A stretch of DNA of 64,000 nt from Rubripirellula sp. Its GTDB lineage: Bacteria > Planctomycetota > Planctomycetia > Pirellulales > Pirellulaceae. The notes under the pieces are model-generated. The model searched no databases. It saw only the letters and a list, made by a program, of their open reading frames with translations, and was not told where the DNA came from. The stretch's first letter is position 1, and each line of letters starts with the position of its first letter. The position numbers and the translations under genes are program-made. This document shows positions 57,801-64,000 of this stretch, piece by piece. The stretch covers positions 416,001-480,000 of the forward strand of contig OZ244207.1 in assembly GCA_965216875.1 (NCBI GenBank), written 5' to 3'.

Positions 57801-59933
57801 CGAGCGGGGCACGATCGCGGACGCATCTATCGCATCTACCCGAAAGACGAAAGACCAGGGCCGTTGCAGGAGTTGTCGGTGCGCGACGCGGGCGATTTGA
57901 TCAGGCATTTGGGGTCAACCAACGGCACGCTTCGCGATCTTGCACAGCAATTGCTGATCCAACGCGGCAACAACGACGTCACCCGACAATTGCGGCACCT
58001 CATCATCACGGACCAAACGCCTCTGACTCGATTGCACGCGCTCTGCGTCCTCGATGGTCTTGGTGAGATCGATGTTTCCATTTTGAAGCGGGCCTTATCG
58101 GACGTCGATCCAACTGTCCAGCGACATGCGATTCGACTGAGCGAGTCGTTCTTGAAGAATCAGCACGAGCGGAGCGGCGAGCTGATCGAAGTGATGAGCC
58201 GTTGTCACCAGAACCCGCACGTCCAATTGCAACTCGCTTCGTCGCTCGGTTTCGCTCGCACTGAGGATGCGGTCGCGTTGCTTGCCGAGGTTGCCAATCG
58301 CAATGACTCACTCGAGATTCGGGCGGCCGTGATCAGTTCGCTCGGGCCGCACAATTACCAAGCGTTCTATCAATCATCGACGACTGCCCAAACGGATGCT
58401 GGCTTTCGCGATGCAATCATGGCAATCGCAAAGCAACAAGACGACTTCGTTTTGATGAGCCGATTGATCGACGATGTCATCACGCGCGTGCTGCGCCGAA
58501 AACAGACTCGCAATTTTGAAATCGTGACGGAAGTCCTCGAAGCCGTCGGAGATGATCGCGACAAGATTGAAACATCGACTCAGGTTTCAGTGGACGAAGC
58601 GCGTGAACTGGCCGAGCAAGTCCTGGCCGGAGCAGACGCCGCCGCCCCGTTGCGGGCCGCGGCCGTCGGTTTGCTTGCCACCGATCCCGGCTCGAACGCG
58701 TTGCTTGAAGCGTACCTTGCGCCGTCAGAGTCCGTGGAGGTTCAAATTGCCGTAGCCCGGGCTTTGAGCCGAGGAAACATTGAGGGCCGCGGAACGCTGC
58801 TGGACCGTTTCTCGCAGCTGAGCCCCAAGGTTCGCGTCGCGGTTGTTGAGCTATGGCTTTCGCGAGCCAATTCGTCGCTCCGTATGCTTGATGCGGTTGC
58901 CGATGGACAGCTTCCGGAATCAACCCTCAGCGTGACGGTCCGTCAACGCCTGCTCCATCACCCCAGCAAGGCGGTTCGTGAGGTCGCTCAGTCCCGGTTT
59001 GGTGAAACCGCCGGGCCAACAGACAACAGTCGTACGATTCGGCGTTACCTTTCGAAAGTCAATCCAAGGAAGGCTCAACTCGAAAAAGGCGAAAAGGTCT
59101 TTGCAAAGTCTTGTTCCGCTTGCCATCGATTGCGCGGCCTCGGGCATGCCATCGGCCCCGATTTGTCGGCTCTCAAGAACCGCTCTCCCGATATCTTGCT
59201 CACCGCGATCGTTACCCCTAACGCGGCTGTGGAAGACAAGTATCAAAACTACAACATCCTGCTCGATGATGGTGTCATCCTTTCCGGCGTGATCGCCTCG
59301 GAGTCGACAACCACGCTCGACTTGTCAATGAAAGACGGCAAGCAGATGCAGATTCTCCGGTCTCGAATTGAGCGGATCCAAAACAGCGGTCTTTCGATGA
59401 TGCCGGACGGCCTGCACAAAGAGATTTCTCCTTCGGACATGAATCACCTGCTCGCCTACCTCGACCAAGTCGGTCCGTCGCCGAAAGCGTACGAGGGAAA
59501 TGTGCCAGCGATCGTGACGCCGAGTGATCAAGGGAATGTTGTTCTGCCGGCGACGAAGTGCCGAATCTTTGGCGACGAGATTCGCTTTGAACCGCGTTAC
59601 AAGAACATTGGTTACTGGGTCGGGGACAACGACTACATCGATTGGTCCATCGCCGTCGAAGCGGCCGGCGACTACGAAGTCGTGCTCAGCTATGCATGTG
59701 CGGACCAATCGGCCGGTAATCAATTTCGCTTTACGGTCGGTAGCGATACGCTCCTAGGCAACATCGAAAGCACTGGATCTTGGGAAGTTTACCGTGATGT
59801 TTTGATTGGCAAAGTGAGCCTGCCAAGTGGAACGGTCTGCGCTGCGCTTCGGCCACGCAAAGGTGTCGATCGATTCTTGATGGACTTCCGCTCCATCACC
59901 CTGCGCCCGGTGCCAGCGGCCGCTTCGGAATAA
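54837..59933 (+). CDS. PVC-type heme-binding multidomain protein (deacetylase-like, FG-GAP, beta-propeller dehydrogenase-like, HEAT, cytochrome c, CBM-like)
   Basis: LAIDD / HTIDHP / FHPHGW; DVNNDGHLDV repeats; FEVELVAAEPLVQDPV; HEAT repeats; CSACH...GPDLS...SMMP; GTG 54837 after GGGAG. Confidence 0.82.
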   Translation: MYRIFLIVLAVSLATASKVSLAQVDDGPPLSGGNRLTYLDEYCDPYYPHLGFAKLTTPAWVGDNDVDAVVTLAIDDMRDSAKYEAYLRPILERLKQIDGRAPVSVMSCSVDPEDPLLQTWLDEGLSIEVHTIDHPCPCLQGGDFEQAKATYEDCVDLMASVEGNHPVAFRMPCCDSRNTPSPRFWMEVFNRRTKRQNFLQIDSSVFNVFTGDDLELPKHWLVNQQGEPRFKRYIPFPSFVNTIENYPYPYVIAKRVWQFPCVVPSDWEAQNIQRPNNPQTVDDLKVALDATVKKQGVFNLVFHPHGWIRNDQIVELIDYAFETYGDRVLFLNFNECVQRINSNLLDDQPIRHPDSGDDNGVRLADVNNDGHLDVLIGNDSQQRLKIWQPSQSAWLETPLPVKLVTVQEGTTVELGVRLGKLDQTSPCSLFVSTEDQQGIHHFRGGRFTTEPLPVGLSGLQTCVAGIDQGVRLRDLDNDGICEVIVANPKVQQILQRSGAGDWNVVSEDIGAPIVDADGQDAGVRFIDLDRDRFVDVVAANGAESTIQLYDSGTQGFTRRIELSDPLPPIVREGANNGVWFAREHMWVQNEDTHRLPDNVDRRTFGQMLGAGDPPPKSAQASLDSIRVPAGFEVELVAAEPLVQDPVAIDFGSDGRLWVAEMADYPLGIDDRGEPGGRIRFLEDKDGDGIFDKSTLFLDQIPFPTGVMQWRDGVIVSAAPEIFFAADRDGDGKAEVREVLYRGFTEGNQQHRVNGFRRGLDNWVYLANGDSDGVIESLKTGQQVDIRGRDLRIRPDTGEMDPQAGRTQFGRHRDDHGNWFGSSNPLPLRHYILSDHYQRRNPLVPSPAAHRDIVRVDNSQVFPVSRVLSHWSGYKPPPAGTPHRFTSACSTVVYRDQLLGREFVGNTFTCEPVHNLVHRRKLIRDGISFRSERPSGEASREFLASSDSWFRPTMATTGTDGALWVVDMYRAVIEHPEWIDDEREKQLFLRAGHDRGRIYRIYPKDERPGPLQELSVRDAGDLIRHLGSTNGTLRDLAQQLLIQRGNNDVTRQLRHLIITDQTPLTRLHALCVLDGLGEIDVSILKRALSDVDPTVQRHAIRLSESFLKNQHERSGELIEVMSRCHQNPHVQLQLASSLGFARTEDAVALLAEVANRNDSLEIRAAVISSLGPHNYQAFYQSSTTAQTDAGFRDAIMAIAKQQDDFVLMSRLIDDVITRVLRRKQTRNFEIVTEVLEAVGDDRDKIETSTQVSVDEARELAEQVLAGADAAAPLRAAAVGLLATDPGSNALLEAYLAPSESVEVQIAVARALSRGNIEGRGTLLDRFSQLSPKVRVAVVELWLSRANSSLRMLDAVADGQLPESTLSVTVRQRLLHHPSKAVREVAQSRFGETAGPTDNSRTIRRYLSKVNPRKAQLEKGEKVFAKSCSACHRLRGLGHAIGPDLSALKNRSPDILLTAIVTPNAAVEDKYQNYNILLDDGVILSGVIASESTTTLDLSMKDGKQMQILRSRIERIQNSGLSMMPDGLHKEISPSDMNHLLAYLDQVGPSPKAYEGNVPAIVTPSDQGNVVLPATKCRIFGDEIRFEPRYKNIGYWVGDNDYIDWSIAVEAAGDYEVVLSYACADQSAGNQFRFTVGSDTLLGNIESTGSWEVYRDVLIGKVSLPSGTVCAALRPRKGVDRFLMDFRSITLRPVPAAASE

Positions 59934-60033
59934 CAGCTGGCCGATTGGGATGCGCATTATTGCCCGGGGAGCAAAAACTTGAACACCCGGAGGCAATTTT
60001 GTCCTGGTATTCATAATTTGACAGTAGTGGTCT

Positions 60034-60065
60034 TGACCATAGGTGTCATAACGTTCAAATAGGAT
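60034..60065 (+). promoter_or_regulatory. Putative operator/promoter copy 1: TGAC-N7-GTCA, 11 nt, TAGGAT
   Basis: Same motif and spacing repeated at 60375-60406. Confidence 0.5.
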
Positions 60066-60072
60066 TGTTGGG

Positions 60073-60227
60073 ACGCAGGCAGGCGTGACCAAATGGGCAT
60101 AGGCTTCTATCGATTGTGAGCCTCGGGATTCCATTAAGGCATGGTGTTCCATTGAGGCATGGGGCTCACAATCGCTGGCACCTATTCTCGTTGGTTGCTT
60201 GCGAACTTGAGACGTCGTTCTTGTCTC
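60073..60227 (+). ncRNA. Putative structured RNA, copy 1 (family not recognised)
   Basis: CGCAGGC 60074-80 pairs GCTTGCG 60197-203; ATAGG/CCTAT; 14-bp inner stem 60111-124/60161-174; downstream GAGACG/TGTCTC hairpin. Confidence 0.55.
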
Positions 60228-60374
60228 GTTCATCAAACACAATGATGTGACATTTGGTGCTGGGAAACCAAGCTCGTTATTCCAAAACACAGCGGGGATT
60301 TGCTCATGTCTAATCTCAAATTGAATCACTGTCTCGGAATTGGCATCTATAAAACTTTTGTGTTTATGCGGTTA

Positions 60375-60406
60375 TGACCTTTGTTGTCATCAGAATTCCA
60401 TAGGAT
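60375..60406 (+). promoter_or_regulatory. Putative operator/promoter copy 2: TGAC-N7-GTCA, 11 nt, TAGGAT
   Basis: Same motif and spacing as 60034-60065. Confidence 0.5.
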
Positions 60407-60413
60407 GTAATTA

Positions 60414-60550
60414 ACGCAGGCAGGCGTTATCAATGGGGCACAGGCTCTTAGGGTTGTGATCGACCCTAAGAGCGTTTTCTCTTCTTTGGGCAACTGTTCT
60501 CGTTGTTAGCCTGCGAGCTCGAGGCATCTTCCTCGCCTCTCTTTTTTCTT
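60414..60550 (+). ncRNA. Putative structured RNA, copy 2, with terminator-like hairpin and U tract
   Basis: CGCAGGC 60415-21 pairs GCCTGCG 60509-15; ACAG/CTGT; 13-bp inner stem 60444-56/60461-73; GAGGC/GCCTC then TCTTTTTTCTT. Confidence 0.55.
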
Positions 60551-60624
60551 CACAGGGAAATCGCCTAATGGCGCATCGCTACTGAGGCGTTTCTCTTACT
60601 TCAATTCTCACTAGGGCACTTATC

Positions 60625-63600
60625 GTGAAAACTTGGAATCGAAACAAGAAACGCAAAACAGACTCCCGCAAACGTCGCAACCGACGCGCGTTGCAATGTC
60701 AATCGCTCGAAAAAAGGGAACTGTTGATTTTTGGTGCTGGGCCAGTTGCTCCTCCTGTCATTACTCATGATCCTGGCGAGTTCTCCGGCGTTGTGCGGCT
60801 CAATGTCGAGCTAACGGGCGGGGGCGTTGGGACCGGTAGCGGTGTTCTTCTCGGTGATGGATTGCATATCCTTACCGCCGCGCACGTGGTCGAAGATGCA
60901 AGCAACGTCAGTGTCACATTCCCAGGTAGCACTGAGGTCGAATTCGACATCGATCTCGCAGATGTCACGTACTCTGCTCACGGGCACAACGCAACCAATC
61001 CCTACCGGGACGGCAACCGAAATGACTACGCTGTTTTTCCTCTGCCCTCAGCAGCTCCAGCGTTGGCGAACCGATACCAGTTTTATACTGATTCGTTAGT
61101 CGGGAATGACATCGATATCGCCGGATATGGTCTGGCGGGTACCGTTACCTCTTCCACTGTGCTGCCCTCAGGTGATTTGCGTTCGACGCAAAACACAATC
61201 GCCTTTGTGAATACCGATGGGACTGAGTTTCAGGTGGATGTTGACCACGCGTCGTATAATCCTCCGGCAAATGCTCCCTTCTCAGGATTCTCCGAAATTG
61301 ATGCGGGGATGCGATTCACGCTTGAACCGTCGGGTTATCGATTCTCTGATTCGCTTCCGGGCCTTGGCGCTTCCGAAGGCGCGTCTGGAGCAGGGGACTC
61401 CGGCGGGCCAGCATTGGTCAACGGGGAAATCGCAGGAATCGTGCTGGGGATTGTTCCAGCAGGCAACCCCCATCCCGGGAAAGTCTTAACGTTTTCGACA
61501 GGCGCCGACATGAGAAGCACTGCTCAAGAATTGATGCGTTCGTCGGCGCAACAAACGATTGTGCTCGATATGAACAAGCAAACTGAGGGAAACGACAACA
61601 TCCTTGACGAGATCGTAATCCAGCAATCAACAGTTTTTGGCCCTGACCCACATGGGATGGTAATACTTGTCAACGGGAACGAAGCCTACCGTTCGCCCGC
61701 ATTCGACGGTGACATGCCAAAGATCCATATCATTGGATCAGGTGACGCGGAACTCGTCCGAGTTGAGCATGATGGCCCGGTGCCTGTGTCTCATGGCCTT
61801 GCATCAAGTCCGTTCGAAATTGACTGGGGCGGTGGCGATAAGCACCTCGATCGTTGGACGAATCCATACAATCGTTACGACGTAAACGCCAATGGAATTG
61901 TCTCGCCCAACGATGCGCTTGCGACCATCAATTTCTTGGCTAGCGCAATTGACGGCTCCTACGTCCCAGCAGATGGCGAGACTCACCATTCCGGCTACAA
62001 CGATGTCAACGAAGACAATATCATCACTCCGCTCGATGCGTTGCACGTGATCAATCAACTTGCCCGCCTCCAAAACGGATCGGGCGGTGAGGGAGAAGAG
62101 GCGGCACAGAGCATTGACTTAGGAGAGGTCGGCTTTCTACGAATCACTAACCAATCGATTGCTGGCCAGGCCTACTATGAACTCGTCGCCGCCAACACCG
62201 GCACTTTGACCGTTAGCTCAATGCAAGATGGTGGAGGGCTGCCGCCGGAGCTTGAGATTTTCGCTGGAGCGATTTCAATCGGTGAAAGCACGAGCTGGAT
62301 CAGCCCAACAGTGACTGTCGATGTTGTCGCAGGAGAACGCTACATCGTGGTTGCCGATGGGTCTGGAATCGCCGATCTCGTCTTCAGCAACCAGATTGCT
62401 CAGGAGAACTTCGCCTTGGGTAACGTGAACCTTGGTGTTGCGGTCGACGACTTTGCAACTGGGACTGGGTTCATCATGTACAGCGAAGAGAGCACGCATA
62501 CACGGTTCTCCAACACGTTTGTCGGCAACTCGGATCACTTGCTTGCTGTGCGTTTTGAAGGCGGCCGCTGGAAGTACAACGCTAACGGAGGGACTTGGTA
62601 CAACTTCACACCCGAATCGACTGATCGACTGATTGCCGCCGTCGACTTTAGCGGCGACAAGATCGAGTCGCTTGCAGGTGTAAGTGGTACCTTCGAAGGG
62701 ATCCAGCAAGGTTTCCAATCGGGTGACCTGACCTTTACCGCGAATCATTGGAATGGCGGCTTCAATGATGGTGAATTCACGATCGGTGGGACATCATTCA
62801 CCGCGGACGCTTCCTCCGTTCATAGCATTGGCGCGATCAATCATGGAATTGCGGTCGTCGATACGTTGACAGGCACGGGTTACGTGATGTTCAGCGAGGA
62901 AAACCTGTTCACGCGATTCGGCGCAAGCGGTCCGTACATCGACAACAGTGACCATCTGATCGGTGTGCGCTACTTCGATGATCAATGGCACTATGACAAC
63001 AACAACAGCAACGAGGGTTGGGTGCCCTTTGGTACGGTTGATTCGGATCGCCTGATTGCCAGTCTCGATTTTGGCGCCGACACGATCACCTCGTTGCAGG
63101 GCAGCACCGGCAGTGTCTTTGGGATCAAGCAGGGATTCGATTCCGCGGACATGAGGTTCCACGCCGACTACTTCAACGGCACGACCAATGACGGTGACTT
63201 TACAATCGAGGGAACCTATTTCGTTACGGGAGCCTCATCGAGCCATCGCGATCTCGGCTCGGTGGCCCAGGGCGTTGCGGTAGCCGATGGCGAGACGGGA
63301 ACCGGCTACTTCATGCATAGCCATGAAAGCGTGTTCTCGCGTTTTGCGGCAAGTCCTCCGCATGCTGACAACAGCGAGCATGTGATTGCCGTTCGCAATG
63401 AAAACGGTCAATGGCAATACAACGATGACTCCGTTTGGAACGACTTCGATCCTGTACCAAGTGATCGGCTTCTCGCATCAGCCGACTTCCTTGCCGACAC
63501 CATTGAGTCGTTGCAAGGAACGTCGGGACGCATACACGGAATCGAACAGGGCTATGAATCGGGCGATCTCGAGTTCGAAGCCAATCAATTTGGAAGCTTG

Positions 63601-64000
63601 GGCGACGTCGGCGAATTCAAAATCACCGGCACAACGTTTACCGTCCCAACAACGGCCTCCAAGTCACTTGGCCCGGTCAACAGTGGCGTTGCCATTGATG
63701 ACTTTGCGACGGGGTCGGCGTACATCATGTACACCGCGACGAGTGTGCACACGCGTTTCCCCCTCACTCACAATCACAACAGTGACCACCTCGTCGCCGT
63801 CAGGTTCGAGAACGGTCAATGGAAGTTCAATGCCAATGGAGCGACTTGGTACAGCTTTACGCCTTTGGCAACCGACCGGCTGATTGCTGAGATTGACATG
63901 ACGGCCGACACAATCGAGTCGCTCCAGGGTGCCAGCGGCACTTACGAAGGGATCCAGCAAGGGTTCCGTTCGGGTGACTTGACGTTTGCAGCGAACCAGT
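60625..64000 (+). CDS. Large secreted trypsin-like serine protease with dockerin-like and ~140-aa tandem repeat domains (3' end beyond window)
   Basis: Read by hand from GTG 60625: RRALQCQSLEKRELL signal, LTAAHV, NDYAVF, GDSGGP, DVNANGIVSPNDAL / DVNEDNIITPLDAL, four repeats; absent from the ORF track because no stop is reached. Confidence 0.88.
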   Translation, partial: MKTWNRNKKRKTDSRKRRNRRALQCQSLEKRELLIFGAGPVAPPVITHDPGEFSGVVRLNVELTGGGVGTGSGVLLGDGLHILTAAHVVEDASNVSVTFPGSTEVEFDIDLADVTYSAHGHNATNPYRDGNRNDYAVFPLPSAAPALANRYQFYTDSLVGNDIDIAGYGLAGTVTSSTVLPSGDLRSTQNTIAFVNTDGTEFQVDVDHASYNPPANAPFSGFSEIDAGMRFTLEPSGYRFSDSLPGLGASEGASGAGDSGGPALVNGEIAGIVLGIVPAGNPHPGKVLTFSTGADMRSTAQELMRSSAQQTIVLDMNKQTEGNDNILDEIVIQQSTVFGPDPHGMVILVNGNEAYRSPAFDGDMPKIHIIGSGDAELVRVEHDGPVPVSHGLASSPFEIDWGGGDKHLDRWTNPYNRYDVNANGIVSPNDALATINFLASAIDGSYVPADGETHHSGYNDVNEDNIITPLDALHVINQLARLQNGSGGEGEEAAQSIDLGEVGFLRITNQSIAGQAYYELVAANTGTLTVSSMQDGGGLPPELEIFAGAISIGESTSWISPTVTVDVVAGERYIVVADGSGIADLVFSNQIAQENFALGNVNLGVAVDDFATGTGFIMYSEESTHTRFSNTFVGNSDHLLAVRFEGGRWKYNANGGTWYNFTPESTDRLIAAVDFSGDKIESLAGVSGTFEGIQQGFQSGDLTFTANHWNGGFNDGEFTIGGTSFTADASSVHSIGAINHGIAVVDTLTGTGYVMFSEENLFTRFGASGPYIDNSDHLIGVRYFDDQWHYDNNNSNEGWVPFGTVDSDRLIASLDFGADTITSLQGSTGSVFGIKQGFDSADMRFHADYFNGTTNDGDFTIEGTYFVTGASSSHRDLGSVAQGVAVADGETGTGYFMHSHESVFSRFAASPPHADNSEHVIAVRNENGQWQYNDDSVWNDFDPVPSDRLLASADFLADTIESLQGTSGRIHGIEQGYESGDLEFEANQFGSLGDVGEFKITGTTFTVPTTASKSLGPVNSGVAIDDFATGSAYIMYTATSVHTRFPLTHNHNSDHLVAVRFENGQWKFNANGATWYSFTPLATDRLIAEIDMTADTIESLQGASGTYEGIQQGFRSGDLTFAANQ

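Follow-up and report, generated by a model that had tools for sequence, protein, structure and literature searches.

What are the two short, related units that stand in tandem in a single intergenic gap of a Rubripirellula genome, what drives them, and do they act as RNA? The genome (assembly GCA_965216875.1) is closed, with 8.26 Mb and 56% G+C, and the window, i.e., the whole stretch of 64,000 nt analysed here, corresponds to positions 416001-480000 of its contig (OZ244207.1). Both units sit within a 690-nt gap that follows a gene of 1,715 aa (DUF7133/cytochrome c). A first-pass annotation, made from the letters alone, had described them as sharing a series of motifs at a distance of 341 nt; all these motifs lie where it had placed them, and the shared 5' ends fall at 60073 and 60414. 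The features of the locus, in window coordinates, are the following:

60034..60048, + strand: predicted DriD-type WYL-activator box of copy 1, TGACC-N5-TGTCA, over the -35 position; 21.9 bits with the matrix of 12 foreign sites, 21.5 bits with a second matrix
60060..60065, + strand: predicted -10 hexamer of copy 1, TAGGAT, 11 nt past the box; 6/6 identical in copy 2
60073..60204, + strand: predicted rod of copy 1, with a closing stem, a bulged G-U-rich helix and a variable apical arm
60111-60122/60163-60174, + strand: apical stem of copy 1, 12 bp of perfect pairs, from folding
60129-60164, + strand: inner 18-nt tandem duplication in the apical arm of copy 1
60203..60231, + strand: 3' hairpin of copy 1, -9.9 kcal/mol, without a U tract and not scored as a terminator
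60306..60377, + strand: ORF of 23 codons in the spacer, its stop overlapping the copy 2 box; GRAVY 0.62, single copy in the genome
60375..60389, + strand: predicted box of copy 2, with an intact palindromic core and an off-consensus centre; 8.6 bits, under the 15-bit cut of the 12-site matrix
60401..60406, + strand: predicted -10 hexamer of copy 2, TAGGAT, 11 nt past the box
60414..60516, + strand: predicted rod of copy 2; its apical hairpin (60444-60473) has 13 bp, and its linker is rich in pyrimidines
60521..60551, + strand: terminator-like hairpin of copy 2 followed by a U tract, -8.7 kcal/mol
60625..64000, + strand: downstream gene, 1,144 aa, with trypsin-like and dockerin domains, extending beyond the window

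As the annotation had noted, a U tract follows the copy 2 hairpin. None follows that of copy 1, which makes transcriptional read-through past the latter likely. A further hairpin (window 60554-60596, -19.6 kcal/mol) lies between the copy 2 terminator and the start of the protease gene, and has no sequence counterpart after copy 1. The 23-codon ORF in the spacer, which is unchanged in the sister strain described below, is probably a chance occurrence.

The alignment of the two copies is gap-free over its first 76 columns, and identity along it changes sharply from block to block. On the promoter side it is 13/16 in the box, 3/10 in the spacer, 6/6 in the -10 hexamer and 0/7 over the next seven bases; on the RNA side it is 28/33 in the 5' arm, 23/28 in the 3' arm, 15/23 in the 3' hairpin and 15/42 in the apical part, with the flanks of both units at background level. 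After the 0/7 stretch, identity returns exactly at the predicted start, itself placed from the position of the -10 and the point at which identity resumes. Core positions as a whole are identical at 51/61, as against 3/17 in the promoter spacers. As far as the sequences can tell, this patchy conservation is of the kind left by selection.

Turning to what might drive the units, we consider it highly likely that the shared upstream TGAC-N7-GTCA is a WYL-activator site of the DriD/DdaA type lying over the -35 position. Both copies hold the GAC-N7-GTC pseudo-palindrome; the copy 1 box is strong (21.5 bits) and that of copy 2 weak, its 8.6 bits falling at the low end of the range of recA boxes (8.1-28.7). 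The -35 position reads CCATAG in copy 1 and CCTTTG in copy 2, neither being a consensus -35, and the spacing of 11 nt from box to -10 in both copies compares with 10-11 nt at other sites of the regulon. TAGGAT looks like a working -10 in this group, and it also occurs 17 nt after TTGCNN upstream of three of the seven 6S genes found in relatives; the two units lack that -35 and have the palindrome instead. The earlier proposal that the units are separately promoted is thus supported, inasmuch as each copy has its own box with TAGGAT 11 nt further on.

The same arrangement recurs well beyond this locus. Across 400 family genomes, the box followed after 11 nt by TAGGAT was found at 18 sites in 17 genomes, as against 1 for the reversed pattern, and the family sites yield the consensus TGACC-W-W-ACG-TGTCA. 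With a matrix built from 12 sites of other genomes (15-bit cut), boxes were detected in the present genome before recA, priA, a PD-(D/E)XK nuclease gene, the IMS-family (imuB) cassette, csrA and both WYL genes, and one further box at a PARP/macro-domain locus. A scan for box plus -10, with a matrix whose training set included 11 sites of this genome, of the class of the candidates, but neither RNA copy, returned 21 sites; the reversed genome gave 0. Genes that stand behind the box in relatives are those for Cas3, a GSU0053-type Cas7, DUF5131 and csrA. We propose that this family possesses a DriD-like regulon that would comprise recA, priA, the mutasome, csrA and, through the Cas genes of some relatives, CRISPR-Cas.

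The search turned up only two WYL genes in this genome, namely that for an HTH-WYL-WCX regulator (a single gene, at about 1615985-1617058) and that for a small stand-alone WYL protein. The best solved relatives of the regulator are 7tzv, 7u02, 9pfq and 8tp8 (E 2e-11 to 3e-11; about 27% over WYL-WCX), followed by PafC, with 9cu3 also among the closest; from their description and length we take all five of these structures to be DriD. The regulator is present in 16 of the 18 other family genomes searched, and a box lies upstream of 4/17 of its orthologs. A recA box of at least 8 bits occurs in 15/17 genomes with the regulator and 1/12 without it, a contrast whose threshold was set after the scores and which, the genomes being kin, is largely one of family versus non-family; the highest score of control stretches taken from within recA is 1.9 bits. 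For this count one genome with no upstream DNA was dropped, and G014, which codes for a 30%-identical WYL protein, was placed among those without. An identity of the element as a LexA (SOS) box was rejected: autoregulation is a hallmark of LexA, and the lexA gene that is present here has no box upstream in either scan. By title and the start of the abstract, a scope outside which most of the subscription literature falls, we found no publication that describes this regulon or reports small RNAs as targets of DriD-type factors.

Several other loci under such boxes deserve a separate mention. In three genomes the box precedes a csrA paralog (here at 2730055), with a leader of about 260-300 nt in two of them, and would thereby link the damage response to post-transcriptional control. 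The gene for the stand-alone WYL protein (about 85-90 aa; 4582563-4582883) has a box of its own and was found in 8/30 genomes. A strong box at 7972945, present in all three genomes of the genus, lies between an unannotated ORF of about 81 aa and a divergent unannotated ORF, with no Pfam match, and at 1256421 a genus-conserved 85-aa ORF of no known family stands directly under the box, ahead of an imuA/imuB-like cassette. Finally, at 1943393 a 16.9-bit box with a -10 stands ahead of some 400 nt that contain no long ORF, fold moderately (z -2.3) and are unlike the RNA studied here.

Downstream of these promoters, the annotation had placed structure at the level of RNA on the + strand, and folding agrees: the z-scores are -5.06 for copy 1 and -5.50 for copy 2, 0/200 shuffles are as good, and the + strand folds better than the - strand by 12.7 and 14.5 kcal/mol, respectively. 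RNAalifold on the two copies, which it had suggested as a check, recovered the same core structure unprompted. Of the seven both-sides changes that the program reports we count two, because four lie in the unalignable apical part and one in an ambiguous register. The first is the step from ATAG/CTAT to ACAG/CTGT, described earlier as a compensatory swap and confirmed as a change on both sides; the second, from A-U to G-C, is in the 3' hairpin. The closing stem has two possible registers, as GCAGGC is present twice at the 5' end; here the pairing of 5' and 3' ends stands, whereas the register originally drawn gives way to the second GCAGGC repeat, which the ensemble prefers when the 3' hairpin is included (probability 0.85 in copy 1 and 1.0 in copy 2). 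Likewise, the apical stems do pair despite their different sequences, but over 12 perfect pairs in copy 1 and 13 pairs in copy 2 rather than the 13-14 bp first given. Between the copies, 7/54 paired and 11/30 unpaired positions differ (Fisher p 0.024), and simulated random divergence keeps as many pairs in 0.95% of cases from copy 2 and 0/100,000 from copy 1, all of these being optimistic figures because the structure was picked from the very two sequences compared. Most of the conserved positions are paired, and the loops and apical arm are not common to both copies.

A sister strain, X5, allows a comparison over a shorter distance. It is represented by one algal-metagenome contig that spans the entire region; over 1,200 nt, 23 substitutions and one deletion are listed. 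Its differences fall on 10/373 bases of the units and 5/319 other intergenic bases (p 0.43), and hence give no sign of purifying selection between the strains. At the 66 positions common to both copies X5 has four changes, all in copy 1, which shift the fold of that copy to another register; random sets of four changes keep the copy 1 energy as well in 38% of 1,500 trials. In copy 2, two stem changes slightly strengthen the fold, and 9.5% of random pairs do equally well. Since these shares of random changes do as well, X5 appears to lend no support to selection on copy 1 and weak support to selection on copy 2. The original claim that selection acts on RNA structure comes out weaker than stated: it rests on two both-sides changes between two sequences, and the X5 changes in copy 1 preserve its fold no better than random changes would; the comparison set for covariation amounts to two paralogs and one strain variant. 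As an aside, the inner helix (60095-60105 with 60177-60183; 60435-60446 with 60489-60495) resembles the base of the genome's own 23S helix 89, which, going by helix numbering, we take to be part of the peptidyl-transferase region. We rejected this likeness: it was chosen post hoc and is not significant once this is taken into account. The genome holds 54 occurrences of the 12-base two-strand motif (0.015 per 4,500 nt), of which two bases are lost in X5 copy 1.

These data also bear on whether the locus is decaying or otherwise passive DNA, i.e., a real damage promoter that was duplicated long ago along with either a quasi-palindrome or a small-ORF relic, where template-switch mutation or chance keeps the pairing and the RNA has no function of its own. 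Such an origin would fit the restriction of the units to one species in all searches, the X5 changes, which are not depleted in the units and shift the copy 1 register, and a reading frame in which 8 codon differences are synonymous and 10 non-synonymous (p 0.083, six frames considered). However, drift does not give a core identity of 51/61 next to near-random spacers (3/17), and the conserved G-U pairs favour pairing as RNA over pairing as DNA. Moreover, the frame in question has no shared start codon, both core ATGs are lost in X5, and the five X5 copy 1 changes that fall in it are all non-synonymous. We hence regard passive DNA as a very unlikely explanation.

If the units do code for RNA, the predicted products belong to no known RNA family and are found in one species. 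The annotation could not match them to any riboswitch, 6S or SRP family, and the Rfam comparison that it had proposed agrees with this: across 3.5 kb around the units there were 0 matches at E up to 10, the isolated copies gave six sub-threshold matches of 16 bits or less, far below the cut-off, none reached the gathering score, and the SRP RNA lies elsewhere in the genome. The available part of PMC2864571 lists a Rhodopirellula-1 motif, which has no Rfam number. An attC site, a tRNA relic, a Pho box and a sigma-54 promoter were rejected on inspection against their consensus features. Also rejected was a sponge of the CsrB/RsmZ type, the copies having 1 and 0 GGA motifs as against the many expected in loops, and a type I toxin-antitoxin system, there being no shared ORF across six frames and no complement of more than 15 nt in the genome. 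Bacterial Y RNAs (YrlA/YrlB), as described in the accessible text of PMC4201824, are like the units in that their paired 5' and 3' ends form a bulged stem and in that they may come in pairs; they are unlike them in having a GNCGAAN0-1G motif near the 5' end and a T-loop-like/tRNA-like module. A Y RNA was likewise rejected, as no match to a Ro60/TROVE gene (PF05731) was found in the genome, nor is there one among the neighbours, where it would be expected within 4 kb on the same strand.

The search for relatives was equally negative at every level. In the genome itself there is no third copy, one candidate locus being devoid of the conserved blocks, and the longest perfect match to the units elsewhere is 15 nt. 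BLAST found a homolog in 0/60 relatives, the 5' pattern with three mismatches allowed in 0/300 family genomes and the 3' pattern in 0/400 genomes. A covariance-model search, which the annotation had foreseen as a route to homologs, returned none: the model built from the two copies (R1) found 0 in 149 genomes under strict filters, with 19 candidates scored per listed genome, and 0 in five genomes under laxer ones, run twice. A strict two-ended pattern gave 0 matches in genome contigs and 0 in metagenome contigs, and a looser 3' pattern 70 genome matches, none with the remainder of the element. The looser two-ended pattern gave at least 119 metagenome and 39 viral matches; nhmmer on 158 of them reached a best E of 0.78, and none of the 80 metagenome matches given to the covariance model scored. 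Five other patterns gave 0, 0, 3, 6 and 0 viral matches, the nine being due to chance, and plasmids and phages yielded a best E of 2. Further, a promoter-anchored search recovered 21 sites in 19/300 genomes plus nine in three near genomes, with no similar RNA behind those examined. Among other repeated features, the genome has three tRNA arrays at 591000-632640, of which the two at 608 kb and 633 kb have several hundred bases of conserved upstream sequence in common, and three tandem copies of a 104-bp REP-like repeat on the minus strand at 1682196-1682404. As for the neighbouring genes, the downstream trypsin/dockerin protein is matched by no more than its dockerin part in the four other genomes searched, and the upstream DUF7133 protein has full-length matches in G012 and G003 and not in the two genomes of the same genus; because of this, the RNA locus is, judging by these comparisons, lineage-specific.

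One specific identity, a replacement for 6S RNA, was suggested by the seeming lack of the latter. No match to RF00013 exists in the genome. In the 40 genomes searched, 6S genes of 207-227 nt occur in seven relatives (three over the cut-off), in each case upstream of one and the same conserved gene, and here that gene is not preceded by 6S. The accessible part of one report also describes 6S as absent in related planctomycetes (PMC5673643). Like 6S RNA (a rod of about 180-220 nt with a central bubble), the units would form closed rods, and the ends of copy 2 resemble those of E. coli 6S (p 0.012 against random segments). However, at 103-132 nt they are too short, they lack the large central bubble and any sequence likeness to the 6S genes of relatives, copy 1 has no resemblance to the E. 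coli 6S ends (p 0.60), and Rfam gives no 6S match up to an E of 10, even when the inputs are extended to 200 nt. A 6S role is thus extremely improbable.

What then would the promoters make? We think it reasonably likely that each makes a stand-alone RNA product. The main rival, which we judge unlikely, is that the units are cis-acting structured 5' leaders or attenuators of damage-induced mRNAs; copy 2 would serve the downstream gene for a secreted protease, and copy 1 either the 23-codon ORF or, if transcription reads through, that protease too. The 3' hairpins are indeed each followed by a start codon, 79 and 86 nt on, and the two registers of the closing stem, the missing U tract of copy 1 and the leaders of about 260-300 nt on csrA genes of the regulon are what such a device might show. 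A scan of 59930-60700 detected no sigma-70 consensus promoter of its own for the gene, though such a scan is also blind to promoters of the activator type. Against these points, inspection revealed no strong antiterminator (4 bp at most), the sequences past the two hairpins are unlike each other (local score 17), and the 23-codon ORF is single-copy and not a peptide of the transmembrane type; a second promoter-leader unit before an ORF of chance size would be without clear purpose.

For a stand-alone RNA, the question shifts to its mode of action. The rod could be a scaffold for a variable arm that acts as a guide or antisense against phage, mobile-element or host mRNAs. The constant frame with its variable arm invites this reading, as does the reach of the regulon to Cas3, Cas7 and DUF5131 genes in relatives and, in the part of the DdaA literature available, the control of defence genes by that factor (PMC12392091). 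Yet, no above-chance match was found in the own genome, in plasmids and phages (best E 2) or, for the copy 2 linker, in IMG/VR (searched with one exact 20-mer), and the variable arms are themselves tightly paired, so that we hold base pairing to be quite unlikely. A protein scaffold or decoy is favoured over antisense action, since the conserved part is a bulged G-U-rich helix with no exposed seed and no genomic complement of more than 15 nt; binding to a protein nonetheless remains a tentative assignment.

In conclusion, both units are probably non-coding RNAs of a damage response, and the locus is, on our reading of the DNA, a known kind of switch that drives an RNA of no known family. The fuller statement, that they are two paralogous small RNA genes of a DriD-like DNA-damage regulon which act by their structure, is one on which our confidence is evenly balanced. 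Briefly, we advance the following plausible mechanism. In each unit a WYL-activator box covers the -35 position and a -10 hexamer follows after 11 nt, the layout seen by comparison at recA, priA and other repair genes. By analogy with DriD, single-stranded DNA made by damage would activate the HTH-WYL-WCX protein, which would then recruit RNA polymerase to both promoters, with transcripts starting near 60073 and 60414 and copy 1 presumably being transcribed more strongly than copy 2. The copy 2 RNA would end at its U tract, with a length of about 135 nt, and that of copy 1 at its hairpin (about 155 nt) or read through. In the least certain step, the RNAs might act via their conserved bulged double helix as a protein scaffold or decoy and not through a pairing seed. 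Candidate partners within the regulon, at the level of a guess, are the stand-alone WYL protein and the activator itself; counting against the former, it occurs in eight of 30 genomes and the RNA in one, so that the two are not co-distributed. More speculatively, and with little confidence, the RNAs could be ligands or decoys for WYL proteins, made by the WYL activator's own regulon, in a feedback loop that sustains or ends a LexA-independent response, and belong to a broader class of tandem non-coding RNAs that evolve fast and stand behind DriD-type promoters. The breadth of any such role is for now that of an RNA known from one species; independently of it, the family gains a defined DriD-like regulon that can be put to the test.

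The closest parallel to the proposed switch is the DriD regulon of Caulobacter crescentus. In the text available to us, DriD is switched on by single-stranded DNA (PMC13004042; PMC9186387) and its site, ATACGAC-N7-GTCGTAT, covers the -35 position of promoters that lack a good -35, with a single distance to the -10 (PMC13004042). The system described here resembles it in the GAC-N7-GTC core over a non-consensus -35, the recA target, the homologous HTH-WYL-WCX regulator (PMC9186387; PMC13004042) and the fixed distance from box to -10, the latter compared as a property and not nucleotide by nucleotide (PMC13004042). It differs in its outer bases (TGACC-N5-TGTCA) and in targets that include priA, the imuB cassette, csrA and the two non-coding units; the accessible text of PMC9186387 holds 0 mentions of 'small RNA', 'ncRNA' or 'noncoding'. 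The DdaA regulon of Acinetobacter and other Moraxellaceae offers a second likeness, with a related motif (CGWCA-N5-TGWCG) and repair, CRISPR-Cas and defence genes under one WYL activator, as the available sections of PMC12392091 and PMC13010146 describe. The DdaA site is reported to lie about 50 bp upstream of the start (PMC12392091), whereas the box here is centred near -32, and term searches of the accessible parts of both papers found no small RNA target of DdaA. PafBC of mycobacteria, another WYL activator, likewise governs a damage response that does not depend on LexA, and its promoters have no -35; it is a heterodimer with a non-palindromic motif, in contrast to the one regulator gene and near-palindrome seen here (PMC6789036, in the part available). 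Two small RNAs at a damage-regulated locus are also known from agrA/agrB-dinQ of E. coli, where, according to the portion of PMC3567139 at hand, they are antisense to the mRNA of an adjacent toxin; the RNAs proposed here carry the damage promoter themselves, and neither a complementary neighbour nor a hydrophobic toxin ORF was found beside the units. The outputs described for WYL activators in the texts available (DriD, DdaA, PafBC) are proteins, and two small RNAs would hence add an RNA layer to LexA-independent damage responses. The WYL domain has a Hfq-like Sm fold that could bind RNA (PMC6789036), and a role of RNA in activating such factors has been suggested (PMC11077062), again as far as the accessible portions of these sources go; if the present proposal is true, the RNA ligand that was once suggested for the Sm-fold WYL domain (PMC6789036) would have a concrete candidate in these units.
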